The translations under genes were made by a program, and so were the position numbers. The notes under the pieces are model-generated. The model saw only the letters and a list, made by a program, of their open reading frames with translations. It did no database searches and was not told the origin of the DNA. Positions 1,793 through 55,459 of a stretch of 64,000 nt of DNA are shown here, one piece after another. This DNA comes from a virus (taxonomy: Duplodnaviria > Caudoviricetes), in IMG/VR virus record IMGVR_UViG_2880152234_000004, positions 77,871 to 141,870 of that record. The stretch is one strand, 5' to 3'. How positions within the stretch are numbered: the stretch's first letter is position 1; every line of letters begins with the position of its first letter.

Positions 1793-1820
1793 TTTGTTTA
1801 AAACTTTAATTTTATCCAGA
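1793..1820. repeat. 28-bp palindromic site copy 1 (TTTGTTTAAAA ctttaa TTTTATCCAGA)
   Basis: Matches dispersed TAAAA-N6-TTTTAT family. Confidence 0.7.
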
Positions 1821-1925
1821 TAAGCACTTTTTTAGAACGCCCAGCGATGATTGCAGTACTCCCCTTCCGCTCTATTGCTGGGCGTTTCATAAAATGTGTT
1901 TACATCAACTTTATGGAGGTGAAAT

Positions 1926-2846
1926 ATGTCTGCAGAGAAAATCAAATGCTCATGCTGCGGCAAAGAACAAAATGCCAATCAATATTATATCTCGGAATCT
2001 CCTTTCAATACTGCAACCGGCAAGCTGTCAGTATGTAAAAGCTGTCTCCAAAATGAATTCCAAAAAGACAAAGATAACTTAAAGAATGTTCAAAACATCT
2101 TAAGAATGATTGACCGTCCTTTTGTTTACGACTTGTGGGTTTCCGCTGTTAATGAATCAGAGTCCAAGAAAAAATCAGCTGGAAATGTGTTAGGTACGTA
2201 TATGAAAAATATCGGAATGAAAGATTACAAGTCAAAAAATTGGGCAGACAGTGAGTTTGACTTTGAAGAAGAACAAGAATATACAACACAGCTATTACTA
2301 GCTAAAAGTACAGAAGATATATCTAAGGAAGACATAGATGAATTAATGCAATTCTGGGGTCGTGGTCTTGATGTTGAAGATTACATTTGGCTTCAGAATG
2401 AGTACATTGACTTCACGAATAGGTATGAATGTGATTCTAAAGGAATGGAACTTCTTATAAATGAAATATGTTTGACTCGGCTAGATATCCGCAAACGGCG
2501 TGAAAATGGCGAAAAAGTCGATCAGCAGCAAAAAACTCTTCAAGATTTACTTGGGTCAAGTAATTTAAAACCGGTTCAAGAAACTGGAGCAAGTGGAGTT
2601 GAACAAGAGTCTTTTGGCACTCTGATCAAAAAATATGAGAATGAGAAACCTATTCCTGAGCCAGAGCCTAGATGGAAAGATCCTGATAAAATCGGGAAAT
2701 ACATTAAGGTATTTTTCCTTGGGCATCTGTCCCGAATGCTTGGTTTGAAAAATCAATATTCAGAGGAATATTGGGAAGAAATGAATAAGCATACTGTTGA
2801 AGAACCTGTTGCAGAAGAAGAGGATCGAGAAAATGACTTCGCATAA
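1926..2846 (+). CDS. yonG: Zn-finger protein, probable terminase small subunit
   Basis: 306 aa; CSCC...CKSC; immediately precedes and overlaps terminase large gene. Confidence 0.75.
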
Positions 2847-4602
2847 AAATTTTACAACAGATCGCAACAAGCACAGTCGAGGAATCAATATTTTTAAAAA
2901 GGGAAACAACTTAAAAAAGAAATCAAAATCCGAACGATTAATGGATGGTATCGGCGCATGGACTTCTTTCTATAGAGCAAACCCACATCGTTTTGTAAAA
3001 GAATACTTGGGTATTACACTTAAATTGTTCCAGTGTATTTTAATTTACATGATGGTACATAATCATTACTTTATGTATCTAGCCAGTCGTGGGCAGGGTA
3101 AAACATGGTTAACCTCTGTATACTGCTGTGTGCAAGCCATACTCTTCCCAGGCACTAAAATAGTTATCGCATCGGGCACAAAAGGACAAGCTCGTGAAGT
3201 CATAGAGAAAATTGATGACTTACGTAAAGAATCGCCTAATTTAAGGCGAGAAATAGAAGATTTAAAAACCTCAACGAATGATGCTAAAGTGGAGTTCCAT
3301 AATGGCAGCTGGATTAAAATCGTAGCCTCAAATGATGGCGCCCGCTCCAAGCGTGCAAACCTCCTTATTGTAGATGAATTCAGAATGGTTGATTTTGAAA
3401 TCATCAGTAAGGTACTTAGAAAATTCCTGACAGCTCCCCGTTCTCCTAAATATCTCGAAAAAGAAGAATACGCTCACTTAAAAGAACGAAACAAAGAAAT
3501 TTACTTGTCATCCTGCTGGTATAAGGTTCATTGGTCATTTAACAGATTCATAACTTACTACAATGCCATGATGAAAGGATCCAAATACTTTGTTTGCGGT
3601 CTTCCTTACCAGATCGCAATTAAAGAAGGCCTTTTGGATAAAGATCAGGTTAGAGATGAAATGGCTGAAGAAGACTTTGACCCTATTGGTTGGTCAATGG
3701 AAATGGAAGCTCTATGGTTTGGTGAATCTGAAAAAGCTTATTATAAATTTGAAGACATTGAAAAGAACCGCAAGCTTGCTTCCCCCCTCTTCCCCCCTGA
3801 CTATTACAGTCTGATCAAGGATTCCAACTTCAAATATGAAGGCAAGAAACCAGGAGAAATTAGGCTGGTAAGCAATGATATCGCTGGAATGGCCGGTAAG
3901 GATAATGACGCAAGTGTTTACACTGTATTCAGACTTATCCCAAACTCCAATGGATATGATCGTCATATTGTATACATGGAGAGCATCGTAGGTGGTCACA
4001 CAGGAACTCAAGCAACAAGAATTCGACAAATATACGAAGATTATGAATGCGATTATATTGTATTGGATACTCAGAGTATCGGACTAGGTGTGTATGATGC
4101 ATTATGCCAGCCTTTATATGATAAAGAACGTGCAAAAGAATATGAGCCATTTTCATGTATTAACGATGACAGAATGGCTGAGCGTTGTACTTATCAAAAT
4201 GCCGAAAAAGTAATTTATAGCATTAAAGGTAATGCACAATTGAACAGTGAAATTGCTGTATTACTCAAAGATGGATTTAAACGAGGGAAAATCAAAATTC
4301 CTATCAACGAAAATGAAGGAAAAGAATATCTGAAAAGATTTAAAGGCTATGAAGGGCTATCTCCTGAAGTTAAAGGAAAATTCCTTTCAAGCTATGCTCA
4401 GATTACCCTTCTAATAAATGAAATGATCAACTTGGAAGCTGAATATAGCGATAACGGACAAGTTAAGCTTAAAGAGCCAAAGAGTAAACGAAAAGACAGA
4501 TATAGCTCAGTGGCTTATGGCAACTATATTGCTACCGTATTAGAAAGACAGTTAAACAAACAAACTGAATATGACGTTGAAGATGAACTAGTCTATTTTT
4601 AA
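2833..4602 (+). CDS. yonF: Terminase large subunit
   Basis: Walker A ASRGQGKT, Walker B LLIVDE, C-terminal KDRYS nuclease motif; ATG 2833 gives 589 aa. Confidence 0.92.
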
Positions 4603-4642
4603 AAGATATGACGTTGAAGATGAACTAGTCTATTTTTAAAAG
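4569..4642 (+). repeat. Perfect 37-bp tandem duplication spanning the yonF stop codon
   Basis: ATATGACGTTGAAGATGAACTAGTCTATTTTTAAAAG at 4569-4605 and 4606-4642. Confidence 0.95.
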
Positions 4643-4656
4643 AAATGAGGTGAAAC

Positions 4657-6177
4657 ATGGTAACCTTAAATAAAGTTGACATTGAGTCTGAAGAGTATAA
4701 GCAAATGCTGAATGACTATTCAACTTATACTTCTACATTTGCTTCCGGCTTTATCTCAAATATGTTTTCCAATGGCATTGTTACGGAAATTGAGGCCGAA
4801 CAATTAAAGAATTATTTTTCTAACCCCGATGAATTTCAAGAAGAAATTGAAGATCTTGCTGAGTATTTTTACATTTCGACTGCAGAGATTCACCAATTGT
4901 TTGAATTGATTGAAGCCCTCCCTACCCTCAACTATAAAATTGACTCCTTTAATAAAGTTAAGTCTTCAGATAAGCACATTTCCCTTTTGAATAAATCCTT
5001 ACATAAGGTCAAACATAAAAGACTTACTAGGGATCTGTTAAAACAGGTAGCTACAGCTGGCACCCTTGTTGGCATATGGCTTGGGGATGCTAAAAACCCC
5101 TATCCGTTTATTTTTGATGAAATTAAATATGTATTCCCCTCCTTTAGAAGAAATGGAGACTGGGTATGTGTAGTTGACATGGAGCTGTTCACTAAGTATA
5201 AAGATGATCACAGAAATGAGTTGTTAAAAAGCCTCTCCCCTTATATTAAACAAAGCGATTATGAAAACTTCATGAAAGATCGAGAGAAATATCGATTTAA
5301 GGAATTGCCACAAGAAAGAACTTTTCCACTACGCACAGGGACGCTAAAAAGAAATCAAGGGTTGGGAACATCTTGGGTTACCCCAGGTCTATATGACGTT
5401 CTCCATAAAAAGAAACTTAAAGATGTTGAAAGATCGATTGCAAATAAAATTATTAACGCTGTTGCAGTTCTAACGATTGGAACAGATAAAGGTAATGGCG
5501 AATACACAAACATGAAGCTGCCTAAAGCAATTAAACAAAAAATTCACGGTGGAGTTAAAGCAGCTTTAGAGAAGAACCAAAAAGATGGAGTAACTGTAGT
5601 ATCAATCCCTGACTTTGCTGACATCAACTTTCCAGATGTTAAAGCAGATGGATTAGATGGAGCAAAGTTTGACCATATCAATAGCGACATTCAATCTGCT
5701 TACGGCTTATCCGGCTCCCTTTTAAATGGTGATGGGGGTAACTACGCAACATCGTCGTTAAACTTGGATACATTTTATAAGCGTATTGGTGTTTTAATGG
5801 AGGATATTGAACAAGAGGTTTATCAAAAGTTATTCAACCTTGTTTTGCCTGCTGCCCAAAAAGACAATTACTATATGAATTACGATAAAGACAAGCCGCT
5901 CACTCTTAAAGAAAAAATGGACATTTTAATTAAATTAAACGATAAAGGTTGGTCTATTAAGCACGTAGTTGATAATTTGGCAGGAGTGTCTTGGGAAAGC
6001 TACCTTGAACAAACTCTATATGAAACTGAAGAGCTGAAACTCCAAGAAAAAATTAGACCTTATCAAACTTCATATACCTTCACTGGGAATGAAGCAGGCC
6101 GTCCAAATAACGGAAATAAAAACAACGACAACACAGTGAAGTCAGCTACATCCAACGGTAATGACAATCCTATTTAA
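4657..6177 (+). CDS. yonE: Portal protein
   Basis: 506 aa, position after terminase, GAGGTG RBS. Confidence 0.82.
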   Translation: MVTLNKVDIESEEYKQMLNDYSTYTSTFASGFISNMFSNGIVTEIEAEQLKNYFSNPDEFQEEIEDLAEYFYISTAEIHQLFELIEALPTLNYKIDSFNKVKSSDKHISLLNKSLHKVKHKRLTRDLLKQVATAGTLVGIWLGDAKNPYPFIFDEIKYVFPSFRRNGDWVCVVDMELFTKYKDDHRNELLKSLSPYIKQSDYENFMKDREKYRFKELPQERTFPLRTGTLKRNQGLGTSWVTPGLYDVLHKKKLKDVERSIANKIINAVAVLTIGTDKGNGEYTNMKLPKAIKQKIHGGVKAALEKNQKDGVTVVSIPDFADINFPDVKADGLDGAKFDHINSDIQSAYGLSGSLLNGDGGNYATSSLNLDTFYKRIGVLMEDIEQEVYQKLFNLVLPAAQKDNYYMNYDKDKPLTLKEKMDILIKLNDKGWSIKHVVDNLAGVSWESYLEQTLYETEELKLQEKIRPYQTSYTFTGNEAGRPNNGNKNNDNTVKSATSNGNDNPI

Positions 6178-6207
6178 AACTTCACTTTTGAAGGGAGGTG
6201 AAATTAT

Positions 6208-7644
6208 TTGACAAAGAAGCAAAAGAAAAAACTATGCCAACTTCAATTGAATGAGATTAAAACATCAGATGACCCAACAAAGTTGTCATGTAGCTTTGTC
6301 ATTTTTGATTTCGATGTCTCTCACAATAACGCAGTAATTTCAAAGGATGTTGCTCTTGAGGCTGCTTCAACAATTATTAATAAACCGATTGTTGCAAAAT
6401 ATTACGAGGTTGATGAATTAAATACTTCTACAGATGCATTGGGAACTCATGAAGCTTATCTAGACACAGACAAGCACGGAGAACTTGAAGTAAAAAGAGA
6501 TACTGCTCCAATTGGTGTCTTTACTTCTGAGGGATACATAACTGAAATTGAAACCCCAGAAGGTAAGAAAGAAGTATTGGCAGCAGATGCAATACTTTGG
6601 AGCTCCCGATTTAAAGATGCATGTGAACTTTTACTCGAATGGTATGGTCGAGGCATCAACATTAATACAAGTTGTGAGATCCTTTATTCAAATTACACCA
6701 TGCAAGATGGTATTGAACACCTACAGTCCCCTATCTATTTCGAAGGTCATGCAATTTTAAATTCAGAGAAACGAGGAGAGCATGACATTGTCCTCCCCGC
6801 TTATGATTCTTCCAAACTTCTTAGCTTTAATGAAATTCAACAATTTGAAAGATTAGTTGCTCAAGCAGCTACAAGACAAAATAATGAGGAAGGTGAAAAA
6901 ATGAATAAGTTTAGAAAAGTGTTTGAATTGTCTCATTCTGACGTTCGAACATTTCTTTATAACCAATTAGATCCAACCCTTGACAAGGAGTCAGCATCTT
7001 ATATTGCAGATGTATATGATACTTATTTCATCGTAAACGTGTATAGCTGGTCAGATGACAATAGCTATGACAAATACTTTAAGTTCAATTACACAAGAAC
7101 AGGCGATACTGTTTCAATTGATTTTGACAGTAAAACTGAGGTATTCATGACACGTAACTGGGAGGAAGTTGTTCCTGAACCTATTCAAACACAACTTAAC
7201 CAAAAAGATGAGCACATTAAAGATTTAACAAAACAAGTAAATCAAATCAATAAGAATAAGGCAGATATTGAACAGCAATTCAACACTGCCAGTGAAAAGC
7301 TTGTGCAATTAAATTCTGAAGTGGAACAATTGAAGCCTTACAAAGAAAAACACGAGAAAACTTTATTAGAGCAAAAACTAAATGAGAAAAATGAATTCTA
7401 TAGAGCGAAATTTGAAGCTTTAAATGCTGAGGAAAAATTCAGTACAGAAGAAGTACAAAACCTTATCCATGCTTCGGTTAAACAAGATGAAGAAGGAGAA
7501 AAAGCTGTATTACAACTTAACACAATGTTAGTTGATTTAGTTAGTGTTCCTACTGAAACAAATACAACCATTAGAGAATTTTCAAGTAAACGGGAAAATT
7601 TAATCCCTAACGATGACTCTTTTGAATCACGCTTTTCACAATAA
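6208..7644 (+). CDS. yonD: Prohead protease/scaffold fusion (probable)
   Basis: 478 aa, TTG start; globular N-terminus plus long coiled-coil C-terminus; internal RBS+ATG at 6901. Confidence 0.72.
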   Translation: MTKKQKKKLCQLQLNEIKTSDDPTKLSCSFVIFDFDVSHNNAVISKDVALEAASTIINKPIVAKYYEVDELNTSTDALGTHEAYLDTDKHGELEVKRDTAPIGVFTSEGYITEIETPEGKKEVLAADAILWSSRFKDACELLLEWYGRGININTSCEILYSNYTMQDGIEHLQSPIYFEGHAILNSEKRGEHDIVLPAYDSSKLLSFNEIQQFERLVAQAATRQNNEEGEKMNKFRKVFELSHSDVRTFLYNQLDPTLDKESASYIADVYDTYFIVNVYSWSDDNSYDKYFKFNYTRTGDTVSIDFDSKTEVFMTRNWEEVVPEPIQTQLNQKDEHIKDLTKQVNQINKNKADIEQQFNTASEKLVQLNSEVEQLKPYKEKHEKTLLEQKLNEKNEFYRAKFEALNAEEKFSTEEVQNLIHASVKQDEEGEKAVLQLNTMLVDLVSVPTETNTTIREFSSKRENLIPNDDSFESRFSQ

Positions 7645-7668
7645 ATTTTAAACTTGGAGGAATAAAAT

Positions 7669-8205
7669 ATGGCTACAAGATTACAAAAAGCCCTTACTGA
7701 AGTAGGTAATCATACTACTGGAAACTTGAATTCTTTAAAAATCAAAACAGTTGCTCACGGTGCAAAAGTGACTGGTTCAGACATTGATAACTTTATGCTT
7801 GTTGAACTTGGTTTTGATGCTGAGGGGAACCGTACAGCTTCGAAACTATCAGATAAAACAAAAAAAGCATATTTAATTGCATCTCCTGAAGCACGCTACC
7901 TTGGTGAATCAATGAGAGATTTTTATAACGGTGTAGGAGAACATGCTCGAATTGTTATCCTTGAGCCAGCTTATACCCGTTTTGATGTTTCTGCATTTTC
8001 ATTTAATACAGGAGTGACTGAGGTTAAACAAGGTCAAGTAGCTCACTTTGATATTGCTACTCAAAAGTATATTCTCAGTGATCCTGCTTCACCTCATGAG
8101 GATTATGCTGATTCTTCTGCTAAGTTCCTCGTTGTAAATAATGAAGATGACCTTGTTTACACAATGGGACAAAAACTTGTTCGCCTTGAAGTAATCGAGG
8201 CCTAA
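7669..8205 (+). CDS. yonC: Head decoration/minor capsid protein (probable)
   Basis: 178 aa between scaffold and major capsid genes. Confidence 0.65.
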   Translation: MATRLQKALTEVGNHTTGNLNSLKIKTVAHGAKVTGSDIDNFMLVELGFDAEGNRTASKLSDKTKKAYLIASPEARYLGESMRDFYNGVGEHARIVILEPAYTRFDVSAFSFNTGVTEVKQGQVAHFDIATQKYILSDPASPHEDYADSSAKFLVVNNEDDLVYTMGQKLVRLEVIEA

Positions 8206-8220
8206 TACATAACAAATAAA

Positions 8221-8248
8221 TTTCAATAAAAGGAGTATTTTAAATGAA
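8221..8248. repeat. 28-bp palindromic site copy 2 (TTTCAATAAAA ggagta TTTTAAATGAA), overlapping the capsid RBS and start
   Basis: Reads TAAAA-N6-TTTTAT-TGAAA on the minus strand. Confidence 0.55.
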
Positions 8249-9260
8249 TTTAGATACTGTGAAAATCAAAGGCTTGTTTAGCCGTGTATTAAATAACAAA
8301 ATGGACGGTACAGACCAAGCTGATATCCAAACTTACATTAAGAAAGTGTTTGGTGATGGCGGTACTACACCTGACCCTTCCATGCTCCATCAATTTAATA
8401 ACCTTGTCGTTGAACAAGCAGATGAAATTGCGAAACCAAAAGTAACACAGCTCCTCTCCCTTTTGGCCAATGTCCAACAAGAAAAACGAGGCAATATTAA
8501 AGAAATTAAAATTCCGAAAAAGAATAAGGCAAAAGTCATTTGGTCTGCTACAGGCTCTGGTGTTGATTTAGTTCGTGTTGAAGGACAAGAAACAGTTCCT
8601 GCTGTTCCGAAAACTATGTCAACTGGTTTCTATTATGAACCACTAGATCTTGTAACAGATTCAATTGTTTACTTCAATAAATTGGTGAATGATATTGCAG
8701 ATGCTAAAGTCCGTTTGTACCTCGATAAAATTCATCAATTAACTGCAAGCGCAATTACAGCTGGTAAAATTCCTGCAAAAAATGTTCAAACAGGCTCAAA
8801 CCTTACTCTTCAACAATACAACAAAGTAGCTTCCGTGCTTCAACGTTATGGTGGAAAACCTATCTTCGTAGCTGATACCCTTCTTATCGACTACTTCGCA
8901 TTCCAACAAGGAACAGACTCCACGTTTAAGAACTTCTTAACAGAAGAAGTAAAAGGAGAACTCCTTACTGCCCTAAATCCAACTACAATCGGCAGAACAA
9001 CTGCTGTTAACCTCACTAACCCATTTACTGATGATACAAATAGTAAAGTCGAACTTCCTGTCAACAAAGGATATATGTTTGCCGGCGGCGTTTCTCAAAA
9101 ACCATTTTCTGTTGTTGAGTATGGCGGACTACGTCAATTGACTGAACAAGACATTGAAGATGAAAGAATCAAAATGAAAATTGTTCAAGATGCTTCTGTT
9201 AACCTTCTTTTTGGAGAAGCAATCGGAATTATTGAAGAACAAGCTGCAGTATCTATCTAA
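8244..9260 (+). CDS. yonB: Major capsid protein
   Basis: 338 aa; synteny; strong AAAGGAG RBS. Confidence 0.8.
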   Translation: MNLDTVKIKGLFSRVLNNKMDGTDQADIQTYIKKVFGDGGTTPDPSMLHQFNNLVVEQADEIAKPKVTQLLSLLANVQQEKRGNIKEIKIPKKNKAKVIWSATGSGVDLVRVEGQETVPAVPKTMSTGFYYEPLDLVTDSIVYFNKLVNDIADAKVRLYLDKIHQLTASAITAGKIPAKNVQTGSNLTLQQYNKVASVLQRYGGKPIFVADTLLIDYFAFQQGTDSTFKNFLTEEVKGELLTALNPTTIGRTTAVNLTNPFTDDTNSKVELPVNKGYMFAGGVSQKPFSVVEYGGLRQLTEQDIEDERIKMKIVQDASVNLLFGEAIGIIEEQAAVSI

Positions 9261-9295
9261 ATCAAAATATGAGGATTTTTTAGGAGGATATAAAT

Positions 9296-9766: not shown

Positions 9767-9780
9767 GAGGAGGGATTTTT

Positions 9781-35576: not shown

Positions 35577-35604
35577 TCTAGATAAAATATAGATTTTATT
35601 CAAA
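35577..35604. repeat. 28-bp palindromic site copy 5 (TCTAGATAAAA tataga TTTTATTCAAA)
   Basis: Left arm identical to copy 3. Confidence 0.75.
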
Positions 35605-42503: not shown

Positions 42504-42531
42504 TATGGTTAAAACCATTATTTTATTGGAA
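42504..42531. repeat. 28-bp palindromic site copy 6 (TATGGTTAAAA ccatta TTTTATTGGAA)
   Basis: Dispersed family; between TA module and yokL. Confidence 0.65.
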
Positions 42532-44208: not shown

Positions 44209-46113
<1,905 letters not shown>

Positions 46114-46736: not shown

Positions 46737-46802
46737 ATAAATCACCCCATATATAAATGCTATTTATAATCACGGATACATGGCAAATGAAACTTTAATA
46801 AT

Positions 46803-47005: not shown

Positions 47006-47091
47006 AAATTCGCAAATTCAGGGTGGTGTTTAATCTTTATGACAACTTTCCACTGATAAATTTTTAAAAATCATCACCAAGAATGTCCTTA

Positions 47092-48177
47092 TCATTGATT
47101 TTCAAGCTTAGCCCTAGCGATCTTCATATATTCACTGATAAATGGCGATTCCATTCTTTGTAACCCTCCCATGTGTTGGGGAAGAACTAAACTTTTTGCA
47201 AATCTAGAGTCTGTTAACCACGGTAGAGCTATTTTTTTGGTAACTCTATTATTTGAGAAATTTATAATTTCGTGGTTATCATCTACTGAATTGAAAAATT
47301 TCACTTCTCTTTCTAGTTCATTAATTTTAGACGTATTCTTATTTTTATTATAAATTTTTCTAATATAATCCTCTTTTATTCTCTGATTAAAGAACGTGTT
47401 ATCATAAGAGTTTAAATAAAACAATTCATTTAAATAATCTATTTCTCGGGCTCTTTTTAATGTCAGAACACCATTTTCTGCCTCTGGAATATCATATGCT
47501 TCACTATCGTAAAAGAGTAAACAATGCTGAGAAGATATTGGAAGGAATAACTGTAGCCCTCTAGTAACAAGGCCAAAACCCCTTCCATGATAATTCCTTC
47601 CAATATAAAATGAATTGTAACGAACTAATGGATTGTCTGATGTTATGAACTTTCTTGATGTTTTCTGTAATATCAAGATAGGTTCCAAATCATAAATTAG
47701 CGGGGTACTTTCTAAAGCAATACCTATAATATTATTAGCAGGTTGATTTATCTTGATTTCAAATTGGTCTAAATCTACTTCTTTAAAATCAGGATGTCCC
47801 TTAATCATTGTTTTGATCAGTTTATCAGCTGCATTTTCTGCTGAGTCAGCACTCCGTAAATTTCTTCCCTCACTAACTAATAAAAAAGTAAGTAGATGCT
47901 CATAATCTTCTATTTCATTAACAAAGTCTAGGATACTGTTTGTGTCTATAATTTTCTTTATAATTCTCGCGGCTTTTCTTTCAATCTCTTTATCTAAAAA
48001 ATCCTCAACTACTTTGTCGTCACCGTAGAAATTGTTTCTTTGACACATATCTTTAATCGAAGCATTTTGGATGTATAATGAATTCATGATATTAAATGTG
48101 CTAATTGATTTGTCAGTTTCAGAAAAATTTCTCAAATAAAATTTCGGAACATAGTGCTGTCTACTTTTTTGTCCCAT
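47092..48177 (-). CDS. DUF4238-family protein; candidate anti-phage gene
   Basis: RQHYVPKFYLRNFS, FITSDNP, LPISSQHCL motifs; GGAGG RBS before MGQKS. Confidence 0.82.
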   Translation of the reverse strand: MGQKSRQHYVPKFYLRNFSETDKSISTFNIMNSLYIQNASIKDMCQRNNFYGDDKVVEDFLDKEIERKAARIIKKIIDTNSILDFVNEIEDYEHLLTFLLVSEGRNLRSADSAENAADKLIKTMIKGHPDFKEVDLDQFEIKINQPANNIIGIALESTPLIYDLEPILILQKTSRKFITSDNPLVRYNSFYIGRNYHGRGFGLVTRGLQLFLPISSQHCLLFYDSEAYDIPEAENGVLTLKRAREIDYLNELFYLNSYDNTFFNQRIKEDYIRKIYNKNKNTSKINELEREVKFFNSVDDNHEIINFSNNRVTKKIALPWLTDSRFAKSLVLPQHMGGLQRMESPFISEYMKIARAKLENQ

Positions 48178-48269
48178 ACTTGCTCCTCCCATATCCCTTT
48201 ACTGGACAATTTTACTCCACCTATTATTTGAATTTTAATAACTTCTTTCATTGACTCTAATATGTGAAG

Positions 48270-48322
48270 GTACAAACACTTAATTAAGTTCCATTTGATT
48301 TTTCAACTGTAATCTCTAGCAT
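48270..48322 (-). pseudogene. 5' part of the SunI/YnzG-like gene (MLEITVEKSNG...)
   Basis: GAAGGGA RBS, ATG 48322, sequence typical of the family N-terminus. Confidence 0.5.
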
Positions 48323-48495
48323 AAGACCATTCCCTTCTGATAACGAACCTAGTAAAATTTTAACATGCGCCAACAAAACCTAAACAGAGATGTGATTATA
48401 TTAAGGAAAAATTAAATTCACAATAATTGGATACAGGATTATAATTATTGATGGTTTACCGATATAAATAGAGAACAAACATTCTAAAAGGGGAA

Positions 48496-49392
48496 ATGAA
48501 ATTGAAGAAAGTATTATTAGGTTTTGCAGCATTCACTTTGAGCTTATCGTTGGCAGCCTGCAGCTCAAATGATTCTGAAAAAGTAAGCACAGAAAAAGAA
48601 ACACCACAAGCGTCTTCGGATGTAGAAAAGAAAACAGAACAAAAGGAATCTACTAAAGAAAAAACTACTCACAAGCCTAAGGAAAAAGACAAAAAGGAAT
48701 TAGTCGATGTGACATTAGATAGAGCAGTTGATGGAGATACGATTAAGGTTAATTACAACGGAAATGTAGACACAGTGCGCTACTTGCTCATAGACACACC
48801 TGAGACGAAGAAACCAAATTCATGTGTTCAACCGTATGGCGAAGATGCTTCTAAGCGAAATAAAGAATTGGTCAGCAATGGTAAACTGCAGCTTGAATTT
48901 GATAAAGGTGACGGGAGAGATAAGTATGGAAGACTATTAGCTTACGTTTATGTCGATGGCAAGTCTGTTCAGGAAACATTATTGAAAGAAGGATTAGCCA
49001 GAGTAGCCTATGTATATGAGCCAAATACGAAATACATAGACCAATTTAAGAAAGACGAGCAAGAAGCAAAAACAGAGAAGCTTTCTATTTGGAGTAAGAA
49101 TGGATATGTGACTGACCGAGGGTTTAATGGCTGTGTGAAAGAAAAAACCACTGCAGTTAAAAAAGCAACAACATCTAAATCGGCAGCAACACAGCCTACA
49201 ACTCCAAAAACATCAAGTGAAACTTCGACTACAACTGAAAACGAAGCTTCTTCAGAGTCAACTGGAGAAACAGAAACATTTAAAAATTGTACTGAGTTAA
49301 GAAAGAAATATCCGAATGGAGTACCTAGCTCGCACCCTGCTTACCAATCGAAAATGGATAGGGATCATGACAACTATGCTTGTGAACGTTAA
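48496..49392 (+). CDS. yokF: Thermonuclease-family lipoprotein with Excalibur domain
   Basis: Lipobox LAAC; VDGDT, IDTPET, DKYGRLLAY; DRDHDNYACE. Confidence 0.93.
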   Translation: MKLKKVLLGFAAFTLSLSLAACSSNDSEKVSTEKETPQASSDVEKKTEQKESTKEKTTHKPKEKDKKELVDVTLDRAVDGDTIKVNYNGNVDTVRYLLIDTPETKKPNSCVQPYGEDASKRNKELVSNGKLQLEFDKGDGRDKYGRLLAYVYVDGKSVQETLLKEGLARVAYVYEPNTKYIDQFKKDEQEAKTEKLSIWSKNGYVTDRGFNGCVKEKTTAVKKATTSKSAATQPTTPKTSSETSTTTENEASSESTGETETFKNCTELRKKYPNGVPSSHPAYQSKMDRDHDNYACER

Positions 49393-49470
49393 TTGAAAGC
49401 CCTTTGTGGCTTTCTTTTTTTAATATGTAATATAAAAAACCCCTCCTCTAAATAAAGGAGAGGAATAGAT

Positions 49471-50352
49471 TTATAGAGAACCCCAGATAGATTTACCACC
49501 TGTATGTCCAGTTTTTTCATGTATAGTTCTATTTACTAATTGCAATCTGCCTGTATTTTCATGATGGTGCCATATATACCCTCGTGGAGTTTTCCCATTT
49601 TTAATGTCTTGAATCTGATACTTATTAAATTTTTTCGCATGCTCCCAAGTATTAATTGCCTTCTTCAAAGATGCGTTTGCATTTTTAAACTGAGTACTAT
49701 TTGAAGATTTAATTAGACTCATAGGGAGATTGTAATTGTATTTAGATGCGAAAACAGGAAAACCTTTAGAATTAAATTTTACACCAGTCTTAGGGTGCTT
49801 CTTTCCTGCGAGCTTACCATTTCTGACTGCAATTTTCTTTGTTGTTGACTTTAACGTCTGCTTAACTAAGAGCTTACCTCCGACACGACTAACAACAGCA
49901 ATTGCAGGTGGAATTAACCAAGCCCATTGAGCATGATAAGATTCATCCTCACCTACATCATCAGTTTCTGGTTCAGTGGCGCTTTCAGTCGGAGTTACAA
50001 CATTCTCTTCAAATTCACTATCAGGAACACTTTCGTCTTCAATGATTTCTTCTTGCGCTGCGTCCTCTAATAAATTTTCATCTTCATAGACTGGAGCATC
50101 TACTAAATTATTATAATACGAATCTTCCGAAACATCAGAGTAATCTTCGTATGATTCCTCTTCGTAGTTAAAGTCATCCTCATACTCTTCATACTCGGAA
50201 TCAACCGGATTTTCATCTGATCCTTGAACTGACTCTGTTCCAGATTGAACCGGCTGTTCAATTGACTGTGCTTCAGCAAAGTTCGGCAATACAAAAGTTA
50301 GCAGCAGGAGCAAACTCAAAACGACACTCAAAATCTTCTGATAGCTTTTCAT
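49471..50352 (-). CDS. Sec-exported HNH (WHH-like) nuclease toxin with acidic pro-region
   Basis: Signal peptide (AEA|Q), ~110-aa D/E-rich tract, hydrophobic QWAWLIPPAIAVV, basic domain with TPRGYIWHHHE..LQLV..H...HTGG. Confidence 0.8.
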   Translation of the reverse strand: MKSYQKILSVVLSLLLLLTFVLPNFAEAQSIEQPVQSGTESVQGSDENPVDSEYEEYEDDFNYEEESYEDYSDVSEDSYYNNLVDAPVYEDENLLEDAAQEEIIEDESVPDSEFEENVVTPTESATEPETDDVGEDESYHAQWAWLIPPAIAVVSRVGGKLLVKQTLKSTTKKIAVRNGKLAGKKHPKTGVKFNSKGFPVFASKYNYNLPMSLIKSSNSTQFKNANASLKKAINTWEHAKKFNKYQIQDIKNGKTPRGYIWHHHENTGRLQLVNRTIHEKTGHTGGKSIWGSL

Positions 50353-50444
50353 TAATTTCCTCTTTTCTTTAGGATTTTTAACACATTTCCATTCTAGTAC
50401 AAATGATGTTAAAAATAAACAAAAAGAGGAAAATTATACTCATT

Positions 50445-51284
50445 TTACAAGAAGTCTTTGAGTTGATCTAATATAATCTCAGTATCTTCATTTTCAGACT
50501 TTCCTAACTCATTAACAGCTTCTTGTACGACAGCTCTTAGATTATTTGATTGTATTTGAGGTGAATATGAAGAAACAATCGACATCAAAACGTCAGCCAA
50601 TTCAAAAGCCATGTCACCTTGTGCTCCTATAGAATTATCTTTAATAATGTTCAGCAACCACTTTAGGTCTTCAACACTTTGGATTGGAAAAAGAGAAAGC
50701 CTATGAATCTCCATGGGGTTCTTATTAGCCAGGAGTTTTTCGACTTCTTCCTTCTGAATAGCATCTGGATCATTTGGATCAATACTTAGAATTTCATCAA
50801 AATCTAAATTTTCGTCTTCTTGAACTTCTTCGTATTCGTGTGTATAGAGTTTAGATAAGAATTCATCAAATGAATCTGCAATCTTAAAATCATTATTAAA
50901 TTCAAGATCAAAGTAATGAACAGGTGGATTTTCATTAGTTAGACGATAATCTAACGCAACCCAATTATGTCCATCCCCCTGTATTAACAATAATCTTTGT
51001 GGTAGACCCCACTCTTTTATTAGATATTCACTTTCTAAAATCCCCAGATCCTTTCCTATTCCTCTAATATGATCAACTCCAATATGGTCGTCTGCCCACG
51101 ATGTTTCCTGATCTGTTGGGTATGCATTAAAATTAATCAATCCACCATTTTGTTGGATAATCAATTTTTTATATTGTTCAGGTAAAGTTAGATTTAACTC
51201 TTGTTCAACATTCTTTATTTCATCTTCACTAATGTCTTTTAACCTAAAAGGATCATATTCACTGTTCTCCCAAAACTCACTCAT
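50445..51284 (-). CDS. SMI1/KNR4 immunity protein with acidic helical extension
   Basis: LPEQY....QNGG, GDGHNWVALDY, IADSFDEF. Confidence 0.87.
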   Translation of the reverse strand: MSEFWENSEYDPFRLKDISEDEIKNVEQELNLTLPEQYKKLIIQQNGGLINFNAYPTDQETSWADDHIGVDHIRGIGKDLGILESEYLIKEWGLPQRLLLIQGDGHNWVALDYRLTNENPPVHYFDLEFNNDFKIADSFDEFLSKLYTHEYEEVQEDENLDFDEILSIDPNDPDAIQKEEVEKLLANKNPMEIHRLSLFPIQSVEDLKWLLNIIKDNSIGAQGDMAFELADVLMSIVSSYSPQIQSNNLRAVVQEAVNELGKSENEDTEIILDQLKDFL

Positions 51285-51550
51285 AGTATTACCTCCTATG
51301 CGCTATGCAATGATTCTCCAAGACTATACGCTTTTAAATTCGGAAAGTTTTATCAAAGTTGTGATGGAAAATAAAACAGACGGTGATGTTCTTCACATGA
51401 GGCTTATCTTAGAAGAAAAGCCAGAGAGTATGTGAGGGAACTCTCTGGCCTATAGTGGCTGATATACCAACTATGATACATCTATAGGATACTTTATATT
51501 TGTGATGTATTCAAGATAAGATATATTTTATTGTTTAATGACCAGTTGAG

Positions 51551-51763
51551 TTACGCCTGATATCTCCTGCTGCTACTAGAACCAACATTTCTAAAGAGTA
51601 AGGAAGCAATCAAAGCTAAAACAAAATAAACAACTACAAACCCGCCCCAGAAGAAAAGCGCTTCATCGAATGGAAATCCAAATAGTCTAAAAATAACCCT
51701 GTGAACAATACCGGTAATAATAATCAGGATACTTGAAGATATTGCAAAAGTAATATGTTTCAT
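51551..51763 (-). CDS. Small two-TM membrane protein, likely bacteriocin immunity
   Basis: Last gene of Lcn972-like operon; AAGGAG RBS. Confidence 0.7.
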   Translation of the reverse strand: MKHITFAISSSILIIITGIVHRVIFRLFGFPFDEALFFWGGFVVVYFVLALIASLLFRNVGSSSSRRYQA

Positions 51764-51776
51764 CAAGAACAACTCC

Positions 51777-52397
51777 TTACGAAAGATTTATTACTCTATC
51801 AGAGCAGTTAGCTATTTCTGGATCATGCGTTACACATATGATTGTTTTCCCCATTTCTTTCAACTGATGGAAAAGAGAAAGAATAATGTTCTTGTTGTAC
51901 TCATCAAGGTTTCCGGTCGGTTCATCGGCCAAAATGATATCGCAGGGTTTTAGAATAATCCTGGCTATTGCTACACGCTGTTGCTCACCACCGCTCAACT
52001 GGTATACCTTTTTCTTTAAAAAGCTTTTATCTAAGCCTACCATCTCTAGAGCTTCAGATAGCTTGTTTTTGTCAAAGTCTTTTGCGTATGCTGTGGAAAG
52101 CAATAAATTCGTTAATACAGTTTCATTATCCATAAGCACATAGTTTTGAAAGATATATCCTAAATTCTCTCTCCTTAACTTCATCACCTCTTTAGATTTA
52201 GGATTTTCATAGCCTAAAATCACAACTTTACCTTCATCTGGGTAATCTAAGAGGCTGATTATATTTAGAAGAGTGGTTTTGCCAGAACCGCTCTTGCCAA
52301 CAATAGAAACGAATTCATTTTCCTCTATGTGAATTGAAAAGTTAGAAAGAACTGATTTTCCATCAAAACTTTTGGATATGCTTTTAAGTTCGATCAT
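51777..52397 (-). CDS. ABC transporter ATP-binding protein (bacteriocin-associated)
   Basis: GKSGSGKTT, LSGGEQQR, ILADEPTG. Confidence 0.95.
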   Translation of the reverse strand: MIELKSISKSFDGKSVLSNFSIHIEENEFVSIVGKSGSGKTTLLNIISLLDYPDEGKVVILGYENPKSKEVMKLRRENLGYIFQNYVLMDNETVLTNLLLSTAYAKDFDKNKLSEALEMVGLDKSFLKKKVYQLSGGEQQRVAIARIILKPCDIILADEPTGNLDEYNKNIILSLFHQLKEMGKTIICVTHDPEIANCSDRVINLS

Positions 52398-54565
52398 AAT
52401 CTGTCTCCTTTTAAAATCTTATTCATGTTTTTCCTGTTCAAATAAAGGCTGAGGAAATACAGAATAATCATCTCAATTCCAATGAACAATACAATCAAGC
52501 CTATTAATTCATAGATTTTATAATAAATAATAAAGCAGATTCCGATCAGACAGTTAGATACAGTCGACAATATGATTAAGCTCTTATTTCTAGCCCAGTA
52601 TGAATATCCAAATATCTCTTTAAGGTAAAGTCGATACGCATTTGCACTGTAGTATGACCATATATAAGAGATAAGGAAGGCTACTGACAATATGAGTGTT
52701 ATAGTTAATCCAATTAGATTCTGGATGAACTGATTTTGAATTCGTGCTATTTGGTCGCTTAATTCTTGATAGACTGATATCGCAGAACCAATCAGCTCTC
52801 TTGTATCTGTTTTATCTAAGTAAGGGATGATGTGGTCATATGCCATACCTTTTGAGGTATCAGAAAAGAATAAACTTGAGGTTGCATATGCACCTATAAC
52901 TGATGAATCAACATTATCAGTGAATACAGTTGCAATTGGATCAACAATATTGTTTTTATTGTTGCCGAGCGTACTGTTATAAGTGAAGTATTCTTGATTA
53001 TTTTGTGTAAATATTATATTGATTTCCAACTGATCTTTTTCCAGTGTATTTAATGGATGCTGGATTTCTTTGTTATACATATTGTCTACTTCAACCTTAT
53101 CAAAGAAAAATTGATCTTTGTAAGCTTTGAGGATTTTTTCTTTATACTTAGCGTATTTTTTTGGAACAAGTAAATTCAATGTGTTTTGATCGAGAGTTAA
53201 TTGTTTTTCAGTAATCGTTTTTCCGTTAACTCCTTTAATGGTGTTTACTTTTAAATAATTAGGACTGATCGTTACGCTTCTTCCCGATGGTGAATAAATT
53301 TCATTTTCTTTGGTTGTATTCAATGTATAGAAATAAACTGGAGTTTTCCCATTCATTTTCAGTATTCCATAGTTTTGAGCATCCATTATAAACGCATCTT
53401 TATGTCTTTCTAATTCATGATAAAGCTTTCGTACCTTCTCGTTTTTTTCTCTATCAATTTTTAAATCACTGTAGTTCAAACCTGTATTAGCAAAACTGGT
53501 TTTATAAACTGTTTGTGTCTTATTCCAGTAAGATTGATTGTCTAGCCGTTGTTTTAAATCGAACAAATTAGAGAGGGATGAAGCAAAAATATTAAAAAGT
53601 AGGATTGTCACAATTAACTTAAAACCCAATGACAGCCATTGAAACTTTTTAAATGGTATGCCGCCTTTTATCGTGGCGCTTATATTGCTGTTGTTATATA
53701 AAATCAAAGTAACAATAATTGTGTATATCATCATTGAGAATGTCACAATCAGTGCATTTCGCATGTACATTTTAACGTACACTGATAACCAGTCGTTTAG
53801 GTTGAATATAAAAGCCAGAATTACAATAAGAAGGGCGCCGCAAATTATAATCATAACAAGTGGTTTTAAAAACATTTTTGGGAAAGTTAACAGCGATTTG
53901 GTTTTTGAATATCCCCATAGCTTCTGTAAGAGAAGTTGCTTGCGATTCTTAATTACGAAATAAAGTATGCCAATAAATAAGATTAACATGGAAAGCAAAG
54001 CTAACAAGAGTAATGCGGTGCTGAACACAGCAGAGTCATTTAAACTGATGTTTTCTTCCATACTAACATTGCCATAGTCTGAGAATAGCTTTTTAGCTTG
54101 TTCAATTACATCTTCATCCTCGGATGAAATATAAAATCTATTTCCTAACCCTACGTTGTTTATTTGGTTTAAATTGAAGTATCTAATTTTCCATGTTGAT
54201 AAAGGGAAATCAATAGTACCAATCAAATTTTCATCTGATCCATTTGCTGTTTTATTGAAATTAGATATGAACCTATCTCCTATTTTGATTGAAGGTTCAT
54301 TCTTAAGGTTTGAAGCGTAGATATTTAAGGTCTTCTCGTCTAAAAAATTGTATTGAGTAATATTCACGTTTTCTTTTTTTGAAAATTCAGCTATTTTCTT
54401 AATGAAATCATCATTTTTAAAGTGTGCTTTGTTGTAATTAATAATTAAAGTTTGTTTATTAGAGAATAAAGTATAAAAAACTTGCTTATTCAAAGTATAG
54501 TGATAGCTGGATATGTTCATTGAGAGTAAAAATAGAATGAACAATATATAAATCGTTTTCTTCAT
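52394..54565 (-). CDS. Bacteriocin-associated ABC permease (DUF1430-type)
   Basis: Multi-TM, duplicated K..GYS motifs; ATG 54565 with GGAGG RBS. Confidence 0.82.
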   Translation of the reverse strand: MKKTIYILFILFLLSMNISSYHYTLNKQVFYTLFSNKQTLIINYNKAHFKNDDFIKKIAEFSKKENVNITQYNFLDEKTLNIYASNLKNEPSIKIGDRFISNFNKTANGSDENLIGTIDFPLSTWKIRYFNLNQINNVGLGNRFYISSEDEDVIEQAKKLFSDYGNVSMEENISLNDSAVFSTALLLLALLSMLILFIGILYFVIKNRKQLLLQKLWGYSKTKSLLTFPKMFLKPLVMIIICGALLIVILAFIFNLNDWLSVYVKMYMRNALIVTFSMMIYTIIVTLILYNNSNISATIKGGIPFKKFQWLSLGFKLIVTILLFNIFASSLSNLFDLKQRLDNQSYWNKTQTVYKTSFANTGLNYSDLKIDREKNEKVRKLYHELERHKDAFIMDAQNYGILKMNGKTPVYFYTLNTTKENEIYSPSGRSVTISPNYLKVNTIKGVNGKTITEKQLTLDQNTLNLLVPKKYAKYKEKILKAYKDQFFFDKVEVDNMYNKEIQHPLNTLEKDQLEINIIFTQNNQEYFTYNSTLGNNKNNIVDPIATVFTDNVDSSVIGAYATSSLFFSDTSKGMAYDHIIPYLDKTDTRELIGSAISVYQELSDQIARIQNQFIQNLIGLTITLILSVAFLISYIWSYYSANAYRLYLKEIFGYSYWARNKSLIILSTVSNCLIGICFIIYYKIYELIGLIVLFIGIEMIILYFLSLYLNRKNMNKILKGDRL

Positions 54566-54579
54566 TGGATAGCCTCCAT

Positions 54580-54623
54580 AAAAAAAATCCGGTGCCTTAT
54601 ATTCAAGTTTTGACGGCACCGGA
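54580..54623 (-). terminator. Terminator/attenuator between bacteriocin gene and transporter
   Basis: TCCGGTGCC/GGCACCGGA stem, U8 on minus strand. Confidence 0.8.
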
Positions 54624-54657
54624 AGATAGATTAGAGATCTCTTTGTTATTGTCTGTT

Positions 54658-55023
54658 TTATTTCGTATCCCAAAAAGCCCTATTTCCCCAAAGAGTTGTA
54701 TACACTGAAGCGTAGGTATACCCTTCATCTTTTTTCTTCCATTTAGATGAAAAGTACCTTTCTCCGCCAGCCGCTGCACTTGATTTGTGAGTCTTTTTAG
54801 TATGATTGTAATTGGATTTAGTTTGCCCACCTTCGAAACCATGATACCAAGTACCGCCACCCGCTTTTTCTTTAGTCAATTTCATGACTTGTATTAAATC
54901 CCTTGTTTCATCCAAGTTAACTTCTCCGTGTGTAGCCTCATCTGAAGAACTAGCAAAAACGACAGAAGATGATACTAGTAAAGTAGCTCCCAACACCATT
55001 GAAGCAAAAACCTTCTTTTTCAA
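54658..55023 (-). CDS. Lactococcin 972-family bacteriocin precursor
   Basis: Signal peptide; GGGTWYHG..SNYNH...H.SS...GNRAFW signature. Confidence 0.88.
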   Translation of the reverse strand: MKKKVFASMVLGATLLVSSSVVFASSSDEATHGEVNLDETRDLIQVMKLTKEKAGGGTWYHGFEGGQTKSNYNHTKKTHKSSAAAGGERYFSSKWKKKDEGYTYASVYTTLWGNRAFWDTK

Positions 55024-55430
55024 TATAACCTCTCCTTTTTGTTTTCACAAGAAAATATACTGCATTCTTTCTTGTCAAGTATGAGTATTACACTTAAAAA
55101 ATTATGTCACTTCGTGTTGAAAAGACCTTCAATACCAACATGACGAACCACGAAAAAAACTGATTATGTTACCATATCCCCCCTTCTCAAACACCCAATA
55201 TAAGGAAGTATTGGGTTTATTTGATCATACAATGACTTTTAACCTTTTTCAAGTTCAAATTCCCATGAGATTAGTAAGCGAAGACATAAGGTGATGTAAG
55301 CGTGGAAAGTTGAGAGTTAAATAACTTTTTCGCTCAAATCAGGGATAGATATGCATCATATAGTTATAGAGGAAAAGAAAAAAACCACTCTTGATTAACA
55401 GAGTGACTTTATGAATGTGTTCTATATAAA

Positions 55431-55458
55431 ACTCTTTAAAATGTGAATTTTATTTAGA
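55431..55458. repeat. 28-bp palindromic site copy 7 (ACTCTTTAAAA tgtgaa TTTTATTTAGA)
   Basis: Dispersed family; adjacent to the stop of the 78-aa gene. Confidence 0.65.
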
Positions 55459-55459
55459 A

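Follow-up and report, generated by a model that had tools for sequence, protein, structure and literature searches.

The window, that is, the whole 64,000-nt stretch of DNA analysed here, holds part of an SPbeta-like prophage together with a part that belongs to the host. Within the prophage, gaps between genes contain a short inverted repeat, or dyad, with the core TAAAA-N6-TTTTA. An earlier note on this DNA had listed seven such sites; all seven were located exactly where it had placed them (Table 1), and all seven are intergenic according to the ORF lists. One further core match, which the note had singled out as the lone example within a gene, does lie inside an ORF (at 18507) and is most likely due to chance, about 0.8 chance matches being expected per window. 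The host part of the window was scanned as well and has no match to TAAAA-N6-TTTTA, as had been said.

Table 1. Dyads, other core matches and the tyrosine-recombinase-fold gene in the window
Feature	Position	Core	Strand	Centre	Context
dyad joint (candidate)	1793..1820	1799-1814	.	CTTTAA	upstream of yonG
one-mismatch core		6175..6190	.		yonE stop codon; indistinguishable from chance
core match, weak arms	8221..8248	8227-8242	.	GGAGTA	centre is the yonB ribosome-binding site
dyad joint (candidate)	13994..14021	14000-14015	.	GACAGT	between yomT and yomS
yomM, tyrosine-recombinase fold	16818..17819		+		Pfam Phage_integrase, E = 7e-8
dyad joint (candidate)	17815..17842	17821-17836	.	TCCCTC	2 bp past the yomM stop codon
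core match without arms		18507..18522	.		inside DUF4238/SEC-C ORF
dyad joint (candidate)	35577..35604	35583-35598	.	TATAGA	between 555-aa ORF and next ORF
dyad joint (candidate)	42504..42531	42510-42525	.	CCATTA	yokL/yolA gap (minus-strand genes)
dyad joint (candidate)	55431..55458	55437-55452	.	TGTGAA	near prophage end

The window has eight matches; across 100 dinucleotide-preserving shuffles, the mean was 0.82 and the count never reached eight, and the suspected excess over background is therefore real. It is also not confined to positions 1793-55458, the interval to which the element had been assigned. The 146-kb prophage (G000) has 39 matches, where 2.59 are expected from its own 5-mer counts, and control arrangements of the same 5-mers occur there 1, 4, and 2 times; the rest of the genome (4.14 Mb) has 29 matches versus 28.3 expected, which is chance level (controls, 39-41). 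Nine other SPbeta-like genomes carry 24-38 copies apiece, among them five IMG/VR proviruses with 25-38 each (1-3 for a backwards control pattern) and relatives with a terminase identity of just 43% and 63%, in which 29 and 24 matches were counted. The seven window sites are thus members of a prophage-wide family of about 25-39 strict dyads per genome, found throughout the prophage including its early region, on both strands, and in all three gene clusters. The core is all or none: one-mismatch cores in the window show no excess (14 versus about 18.7 expected), and the near match at 6175 that the note had included is indistinguishable from chance. We are less sure that the core match at 8227 belongs to the family.

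A frequency matrix built from 31 SPbeta sites gives arms of TYTNRA plus TAAAA flanking six free bases, and this consensus is symmetric irrespective of the direction of the genes. Beyond the core, preferences are marked at a few positions (T at -6, 81%; A at -1, 87%; A at +4, 81%; A at +6, 94%) and weak at the others. Consequently, of the long consensus proposed before, the TAAAA-N6-TTTTA core holds strictly and the outer arms are obeyed only loosely; the likeness to dif, with inverted arms of about 11 bp around six free bases, stands, the outer arm positions being weak. Different sites within one genome have only 10 invariant bases in common. These data support a selected, phage-specific family with an 11-6-11 geometry. 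A literature search that took in the accessible part of the Kohm preprint, with Brady et al. 2023 and Lazarevic et al. 1999 lying outside it, found no description of the dyad.

The placement of the dyads follows a pattern. In SPbeta, 30 of the 34 cores either avoid annotated CDS altogether or fall on a CDS stop codon, and in nine of them, by comparison of core coordinates with CDS ends, the TAA of the core is itself the stop codon; in the G000 prophage, 30 of 39 cores fall in gaps between called ORFs. Typically, a dyad occupies a short intergenic gap, past the stop codon and a few bases ahead of the next ribosome-binding site, which begins 6-14 nt past the core. Several dyads are 4-50 bp from annotated terminator stem-loops, and four boxes of the type called SPBRE lie 33-120 bp from a dyad.

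The six-base centre varies among the sites of one genome, yet a given genomic position keeps its centre from one SPbeta-like phage to another, even if it is flanked by unrelated genes on one side or on both. Over 44 groups of orthologous sites, which were set by flanking proteins independently of the centre, centre identity is 0.893 versus 0.727 for the non-consensus arm positions on the homologous side; the centre is the better conserved in 26 groups, the less conserved in four, with no difference in 14 (sign test, p = 6e-5). (Protein-based orthology was used for G021 and G080, whose flanks cannot be aligned with those of G000 by blastn at most sites.) The G000 prophage and SPbeta have 26 centres in common, where shuffling gives 1.1 on average. 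For G000 and G021, with a DNA identity of just 67-78% in the genes they share, the figure is seven, all in the same order, versus a mean of 0.73. Of 34 centres, 22 are common to SPbeta and phi3Ts; at six of these, both 40-bp flanks are unrelated, and these six occur in the same order. Identical partners are thus found at like positions in different genomes and not within one genome, where duplicated centres (3 of 302) are at about chance level by a rough estimate; in the genome studied here, one centre does occur twice, in direct orientation and 52.8 kb apart, with no deletion. None of 209 centres is palindromic versus about three expected, an avoidance that is not significant.

This pattern changes the objection, raised in the earlier note itself, that differing spacers would block classical Xer- or Cre-type exchange. 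Spacers do differ within a genome, but those at the same position are conserved between genomes, and exchange between like-positioned sites would therefore satisfy the identical-spacer rule.

Comparison of relatives shows that likeness sets in or breaks off at either edge of the 16-bp core. In 94 pairs of sites that are homologous on one flank, the opposite flank drops to an identity of 0.3-0.4 immediately past the core. In six natural relatives, SPbeta homology stops at 116431, and the last base of the dyad there is 116430. At the centre CAGTCT, present in nine of ten genomes, G091 and G095 are alike on the left and different on the right, and G091 and G093 are alike on the right and different on the left. 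When the G000 prophage is compared with SPbeta, a blastn block ends at 16 of 30 site-bearing gaps versus 45 of 202 site-free gaps (p = 7e-4), and in a test of protein adjacency, site-bearing junctions lose a neighbour more often in eight of eight genome comparisons, two of them individually significant; these p-values overstate independence, because the genome pairs share ancestry. Of the 54 block ends between SPbeta and phi3Ts, 6 are no more than 12 bp from a core (null mean, 1.5; maximum of 5000 draws, 6). The proposed tie to module exchange is borne out in this respect, and synteny breakpoints are associated with dyads, although most mosaic boundaries, such as the other 48 of the 54 block ends between SPbeta and phi3Ts, are elsewhere. 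A four-gamete test with ten genomes and strict ungapped flank classes, which has low power, found none of 67 shared centres with all four flank combinations and five with three of the four.

Within the window, four of the seven sites (1799, 17821, 35583, and 55437) lie by blastn at the edges of slots whose content differs from SPbeta, whereas three (8227, 14000, and 42510) are in blocks collinear with SPbeta; the note had claimed six of seven. At 1799, the SPbeta homology block resumes at 1818, and yonH and yonI are missing from this genome, the junction falling directly after the right arm; the same centre recurs in SPbeta, phi3Ts, G021, and G092 with differing flanks. At the site past yomM, the homology block stops at 17821, and this 16-mer, found in eight of ten genomes, is joined on its left to six or more unrelated flanks among IMG/VR relatives. 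Site 35583 is in a 145-bp island with 96.6% identity to SPbeta, with both sides unalignable. The 16-mer at 55437 is identical in SPbeta with unrelated flanks, and contigs of relatives connect 51515 to 55437, i.e., exactly to the first base of the core (4/4 runs). Of the collinear sites, 14000 has a centre common to five genomes and that of 42510 occurs even in the distant G080. The centre at 8227 is present in four of ten genomes, with a single flank class on each side, and coincides with no breakpoint.

Recombinants made in the laboratory between phi3Ts and SPbeta have 15 of 16 junctions in homologous regions, according to the accessible text of that study (10.1101/2020.05.06.055103). We mapped Hyb1 and part of Hyb2 against both parents. 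The crossover interval of Hyb1 spans 18 kb and that of the mapped part of Hyb2 spans 1.4 kb, with a dyad at each end; the parents are identical across both intervals, so an action of the dyads is here indistinguishable from ordinary homologous recombination. The non-homologous junction that Dragos et al. place 'following yosA', in the part of their text that is accessible, could coincide with the dyad at 116415.

Conservation of the centres and the abrupt switching of homology suggest, at what we judge to be roughly even chances, that the dyads may be protein-recognised double-stranded joints at which relatives exchange modules. A dimeric phage protein would recognise the dyad, crossovers between two related genomes (those of co-infecting phages, or of a phage and a resident prophage) would occur within the core, and the position-specific centre would permit pairing only of like with like. 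Modules would therefore be swapped in register, and the genome would not be scrambled internally. Counting against this reading are the many mosaic boundaries away from dyads, the three collinear window sites, the junctions and crossover intervals of the laboratory recombinants, the lack of a complete four-gamete set, and the centre that is duplicated without deletion. Heterospecific lox and FRT sites behave in this manner: they have the same arms with differing spacers, and only partners with the same spacer recombine, giving in-register exchange without internal deletion. That cassette exchange is engineered, whereas the dyads are natural and putative recombination sites. In a more specific version, which we consider doubtful, the dyads would form a natural grid of about 25-39 heterospecific recombination sites; YopP or YomM, perhaps with the DndB-like YopQ, would join only sites with the same centre, and like-addressed modules would be exchanged in register without internal deletion. 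Such a grid would represent programmed mosaicism and a natural counterpart of recombinase-mediated cassette exchange; we know of no natural dispersed set of heterospecific recombination sites. Phage genomes are mosaics, and ever since the modular theory of phage evolution was put forward there has been debate over the in-register swapping of unrelated genes; in the present case, a phage family that serves as a well-studied model carries a strict, phage-specific punctuation at its gene junctions. If the dyads are true crossover points, they would account for the clean exchange of defence, counter-defence, toxin, and receptor-binding genes among SPbeta-like phages and would provide ready-made orthogonal sites for engineering.

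Alternatively, the dyads may be operators or insulators of a global phage DNA-binding protein that silences or partitions prophage transcription, a possibility that we rate as real but on the unlikely side. The most likely binders would then be the lysogeny proteins YopQ/SroE, of the DndB family, or YopP/SroD, and the link to gene swaps would be a by-product, a conserved site being located in the only gaps that tolerate a swap. (Such a site, if functional, could persist while its neighbours are replaced by other means.) Intergenic sites in all three gene clusters and the nearby SPBRE boxes fit this role, as does the presence of YopQ, YopR, and YopP in all nine carrier genomes, YopP being frameshifted in one. 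Moreover, yopQ, yopP, and mrpR are called core genes likely active in lysogeny in the accessible part of PMC10516654. YopQ matches Pfam DndB (E = 6e-15), and the accessible text on Salmonella DndB describes binding to TACG-N10-CGTA (PMC4507180), which resembles the dyad in that a free spacer separates a pair of short, inverted half-sites but differs in that the spacer is 10 rather than 6 bases and there are two sites in one promoter, whereas the dyads are genome-wide and YopQ is a putative binder. A generic operator gives no reason for a free spacer that outdoes the arms in per-position conservation, nor for homology that switches exactly at both core edges. The stoperators of mycobacteriophage L5 are dozens of short repressor sites, located genome-wide in small gaps and often on stop codons; they lack symmetry, follow the direction of transcription, and do not differ from one another. 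The dyads share their intergenic, stop-codon placement but are symmetric and have site-specific centres. In addition, MrpR ChAP-seq gave ten peaks, all at SPBRE promoters, in the accessible account (PMC10516654), and a preprint calls the role of SroE unclear as of November 2025 and, in its accessible part, mentions no motif for it (10.1101/2025.11.27.690993). If the dyads are nevertheless operators of YopQ or YopP, they would supply the targets on DNA that are still missing for the second and third lysogeny proteins of arbitrium phages.

The other identities considered are far less probable. That the dyads are SPBRE itself, the operator of the master repressor MrpR (YopR/SroF), is practically excluded by sequence, and with it the identity that the earlier note had named as fatal to its proposal. 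Both are repeated intergenic SPbeta elements, and MrpR has a tyrosine-recombinase fold in the accessible description (PMC10516654), but the box common to nine of the ten published MrpR target regions (at most two mismatches) is different and non-palindromic. The core of that box, AAWAATATGTATA, has 11 matches in SPbeta, where it precedes each of the ten targets, and 10 in this genome, all outside the window; furthermore, SroF binds its 24-26-bp box as a monomer according to the accessible text of 10.1101/2025.11.27.690993.

It is also highly improbable that the dyad acts as a folded single strand, be it an intercistronic RNA hairpin for processing, stability, or translation or an attC-like integron site, despite its location between a stop codon and the next ribosome-binding site, the ability of the core to pair 5 bp around a 6-nt loop, and the ORF-site-ORF layout of the early region, which resembles a cassette array. 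A stem of five A-T pairs alone would be too weak by nearest-neighbour energies. Across 209 unique sites, Watson-Crick pairing at the ten arm pairs, -1/+1 to -10/+10, is at or below the shuffled expectation (z of -3.2 to +1.0); the half-sites are invariant in sequence, beyond mere pairing, and symmetric whichever way the genes run. The dyads have been selected as double-stranded DNA half-sites and not as hairpins, because the arms do not covary. The analogy to integrons drawn earlier fails on this result, and the dyads occur on both strands and in every gene cluster, unlike a single integron array. REP elements with a RAYT were rejected too, the core being A+T only and the arms lacking covariation, whereas REPs are G+C-rich hairpins.

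Equally improbable are small promoter/terminator cassettes like the PeSLs of T4-type phages, with genes shuffled by ordinary homologous recombination. PeSLs, in the accessible text of Arbiol et al. 2010 (PMC2839356), are short repeated intergenic cassettes that mediate modular shuffling; they occupy accessory regions of a large phage genome and delimit the insertions, deletions, and replacements seen between relatives. The terminator stem-loops close to several dyads would be in keeping with this. PeSLs, however, are promoter-plus-terminator units with long mutual homology that recombine within a genome to give mini-circles (PMC2839356, same part), whereas the dyads are neither promoters nor terminators and have a position-specific centre. 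A scan of 1-20000 found no coding-strand sigma-A-like promoter at dyads 1799, 14000, and 17821, the ribosome-binding site is too near the core for the next gene's promoter, there is no G+C-rich stem within the sites, and the 10 bases invariant between sites of one genome are too few for homologous recombination. A reading of the left arm as a -35 and the right arm as a -10 element was rejected on the spacing to the ribosome-binding site and on the promoter scan.

For the exchange-joint interpretation, a natural parallel is that of the pdif sites and dif modules of Acinetobacter plasmids, where accessory modules lie between dispersed sites of the 11-6-11 type and the agent is presumed to be a tyrosine recombinase (XerC/XerD), as it may be for the dyads (accessible part of PMC6449649). 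The pdif sites use the host Xer system and are few per replicon, with no position-specific centre reported in that part, whereas the dyads number about 25-39 per genome and do not exceed chance in the host chromosome; the phage itself would encode any enzyme involved. Candidate agents are YopP, or YomM where present, both of which have the tyrosine-recombinase fold, YopQ, or an annealing-type recombination at the 16 bp of identity. The special link to YomM put forward in the earlier note is not sustained: the site next to yomM has the many left flanks described above, yomM is missing from two of nine carrier genomes (G080 and G092), and YomM, whose motifs R, K, H-x-x-K, H, and Y are present in six of six homologues, has Lys at the expected position of the second catalytic Arg in all six. 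SPbeta YopP also has Lys there; some YopP orthologues have Arg.

Two minor observations concern individual sites. RNA libraries of relatives (24 runs found, all relatives, with word shares of 0.17-0.21, compared over 36000-55900) yielded Logan contigs that pass through 42510 in 4/4 runs, some of them joining near 42510; these joints are at the level of DNA, and with RNA ends invisible in such contigs they say nothing about processing or termination. At 17821, the centre plus a run of A is complementary to the 3' half of the downstream terminator, a possible antiterminator; in relative L082, the terminator is altered without a matching change in the yomM-adjacent dyad.

The dyad core, TAAAA-N6-TTTTA (16 bp), occurs eight times in the window, at exactly the positions that the earlier note had written, and this is a clear enrichment over a matched background: 100 dinucleotide-preserving shuffles gave a mean of 0.82 cores, and none of them gave eight. 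As that note also had it, the host portion of the window contains no core and, according to the ORF lists, seven of the eight cores are intergenic. (The remaining core, at 18507, lies within an ORF and lacks arms, and one such core is the number expected by chance.) A near match that had been listed with them, at 6175, is indistinguishable from chance, because 14 one-mismatch cores are present in the window and about 18.7 are expected; with no such surplus, the core is all-or-none, without a halo of decayed copies.

The window covers the late and right-hand portion of an SPbeta-like prophage, and the pattern continues beyond it. The whole genome (G000) has 68 cores, 39 of them within the 146-kb prophage, for which the prophage's own 5-mer counts predict 2.59 and three controls with these 5-mers rearranged gave 1, 4, and 2; the other 4.14 Mb has 29 cores versus 28.3 expected. 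There are 34 cores in SPbeta, spread across the early, late, and lysogenic-conversion clusters, 30 in phi3Ts, 25-38 in each of five IMG/VR proviruses (versus 1-3 for a backwards control pattern), and 24 and 29 in prophages whose terminase is 63% and 43% identical, respectively. The original observation is thus confirmed and extended: since cores are found throughout the relatives, the sites noticed at first are one corner of a family-wide element, no description of which was found in the searchable literature.

Positions of dyad cores in the window, of SPbeta dyads with unrelated flanks, and of the G000 yopQ gene
Feature	Sequence	Position	Remark
Core start	window	1799	
Core start	window	8227	
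Core start	window	14000	
Core start	window	17821	
Core start	window	18507	
Core start	window	35583	
Core start	window	42510	
Core start	window	55437	
Dyad, flanks unrelated to phi3Ts	SPbeta	69424	
Dyad, flanks unrelated to phi3Ts	SPbeta	88400	
Dyad, flanks unrelated to phi3Ts	SPbeta	99498	
Dyad, flanks unrelated to phi3Ts	SPbeta	116415	
Dyad, flanks unrelated to phi3Ts	SPbeta	117535	
Dyad, flanks unrelated to phi3Ts	SPbeta	118470	
yopQ	G000	L157:1379-2773	Pfam DndB

When 31 SPbeta sites are oriented by transcription, their consensus is T(-6) Y T N R A(-1) TAAAA N6 TTTTA W W B A(+4) R A(+6), which is symmetric except at positions 1-2. Of the 34 cores in SPbeta, 30 fall on stop codons or in sequence not annotated as CDS (nine of them end the upstream gene with their own TAA), and the next ribosome-binding site starts 6-14 nt downstream of the core. 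The SPbeta record itself annotates just two dyads, each as a stem_loop. One well-formed dyad (SPbeta 111029, L003:11029) falls within the annotated yorM CDS, 120 bp past a core of SPBRE, the MrpR operator; the annotated yorM start codon may be too far upstream.

The comparisons support the reading that the dyads are exchange joints, above all because their centres (the six middle bases) are conserved by position and because homology switches at the core edges. Each of the seven window sites has an SPbeta counterpart with the same centre, and 26 centres are common to G000 and SPbeta (shuffled mean, 1.1). G000 and another carrier, G021, with a DNA identity of only 67-78% between their common genes, have seven centres in common with their order kept (mean, 0.73). 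When positional orthologues were set by flanking proteins rather than by the centre (124 site pairs, 44 groups), the centre had an identity of 0.893, and arm positions outside the consensus, taken on the homologous side, had 0.727; the centre was above the arms in 26 groups, below them in 4, and level with them in 14 (sign test p = 6e-5). Ten genomes contain 127 distinct centres, 67 of which are present in at least two genomes and one of which, CAGTCT, is present in nine, and within a genome the centres are near-unique (3 duplicates among 302). Judged by such sequence comparison, the centre of a dyad would be its address. Outside the window, two G000 dyads (G000:C1:1551361 and 1604151), in direct orientation and 52.8 kb from each other, have identical centres; the former lies left of the SPbeta-homologous prophage, in a stretch that repeats the yoqV-yoqX region and may have been left by a second element or have arisen by segmental duplication.

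Where only one flank is homologous (94 site pairs), the opposite flank is at 0.3-0.4 identity directly past the core, and the centre is at 0.73-0.84. SPbeta and phi3Ts have 22 of 34 centres in common; at six of these dyads both 40-bp flanks are unrelated, and these six are collinear. In six natural relatives SPbeta homology is lost at 116431, one base past a dyad. Around CAGTCT, carriers G091 and G095 agree on the left as far as the core and differ from +1, and G091 and G093 agree on the right from +1, with differing left flanks. Within the window, an SPbeta homology block resumes at 1818 and stops at 17821, and site 35583 lies within a 145-bp island of SPbeta homology. The yonH and yonI genes are absent, with the junction immediately past the right arm of dyad 1799; in their place, 1601-1817 carries a small ORF (~31 aa) and, at 1770-1789, a terminator-like hairpin, and the dyad is kept. 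RNA-library contigs of relatives, which are not able to show RNA ends, link 51515 to 55437, the first core base; the 3.9-kb slot skipped in four of four runs (51516-55436) has a 759-aa ORF on the minus strand. Among IMG/VR relatives, the left flank of the yomM-side dyad takes at least six unrelated forms. In the window, a 430-aa ORF with DUF4238 and a SEC-C motif (17836-19128) begins at the final core base of this dyad, where most relatives have a conserved terminator. The A-run and centre of the dyad (17822-17831) exactly complement the 3' half of this terminator, ~30 nt downstream in most relatives, which could reflect alternative pairing or the trace of a duplication.

Breaks at dyads were set against a gene-boundary null, with p-values that are generous because the genomes are related. 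Between G000 and SPbeta, a block ends at 16 of the 30 gaps that have a site and at 45 of the 202 that lack one (p = 7e-4). At the protein level, loss of a neighbour is commoner across site junctions than across other junctions in all eight comparisons (16/24 versus 87/229 for SPbeta and 16/17 versus 109/193 for G094; each of the other six is not significant alone). Of the 54 block ends between SPbeta and phi3Ts, 6 are no more than 12 bp away from a core (null mean, 1.5; maximum of 5000 draws, 6) and 48 lie elsewhere; consequently, the dyads are enriched at mosaic joints but account for a minority of them. The earlier note placed six of seven sites at slot edges, which holds for four; 8227, 14000, and 42510 are inside blocks collinear with SPbeta.

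Identity with SPBRE, a link to YomM, and an integron analogy, all raised earlier, are not supported. MrpR ChAP-seq lists ten targets (PMC10516654), and the regions upstream of nine of them have in common a non-palindromic 15-mer (at most 2 mismatches) that is unlike the dyad. The core of this SPBRE 15-mer, AAWAATATGTATA, has 11 matches in SPbeta, which cover the upstream regions of all ten targets, and 10 in the G000 genome, with none in the window. The box bound by SroF (MrpR) is described as 24-26 bp and bound as a monomer (10.1101/2025.11.27.690993). Promoter readings were rejected as well: YonO initiates the late operon at a single site, upstream of yonK, and no coding-strand sigma-A promoter-like match falls on dyads 1799, 14000, or 17821. 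The dyads lack the G+C stem of a terminator. Arm pairs -1/+1 to -10/+10, scored over 209 unique intergenic sites of nine genomes, do not pair above shuffled partners (z -3.2 to +1.0), and this absence of covariation removes both an RNA hairpin and the attC-like folding on which the integron analogy depended. It points to a dyad that would be read on double-stranded DNA as two half-sites.

YomM, YopP/SroD, and YopQ/SroE are candidates for the protein that acts on the dyads. YomM has a tyrosine-recombinase fold (Pfam E = 7e-8; best PDB matches to Cre, weak), with Lys at the expected second catalytic Arg in six of six homologues; yomM is absent from carriers G080 and G092, which have 24 and 27 dyads, and in SPbeta the counterpart of the yomM-side dyad is ~400 bp from the gene. 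YopP/SroD is present in nine of nine carriers (frameshifted in G094) and retains R, K, H, H, and Y, the second Arg position being Arg or Lys depending on the phage. YopQ/SroE, also in nine of nine, matches Pfam DndB (E = 6e-15), an assignment not mentioned in the accessible portions of the literature on arbitrium-phage lysogeny proteins. It is the second lysogeny repressor of these phages, with a role called unclear in November 2025 (10.1101/2025.11.27.690993). The main rival to exchange joints is a reading of the dyads as global operators of YopQ or YopP. The Salmonella DndB target (PMC4507180) is TACG-N10-CGTA, in which a free spacer separates two short inverted half-sites. A generic operator would be expected to have conserved arms and a free spacer, and the opposite pattern is observed. 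The dyads may be both exchange joints and YopQ/YopP operators.

Laboratory recombinants do not help with the dyads. In one study, 15 of 16 junctions were reported to lie in homologous regions and the single non-homologous one was 'following yosA' (Dragos et al., 10.1101/2020.05.06.055103). In phi3Ts x SPbeta hybrids, the Hyb1 crossover maps to 18 kb of parental identity and one Hyb2 crossover to a 1.4-kb mtbP segment, exactly between two dyads. SPbeta and phi3Ts have this methyltransferase gene in identical form (L156:6435-7830 in Hyb2; SPbeta 113664-115059), and the identical stretch has a dyad within 8 bp of each end, as if it were a common cassette. In the host DNA of the window, 59762-62839 is 68-81% identical to the bnrdE/bnrdF region of SPbeta phage and presumably represents the host's own ribonucleotide reductase genes.
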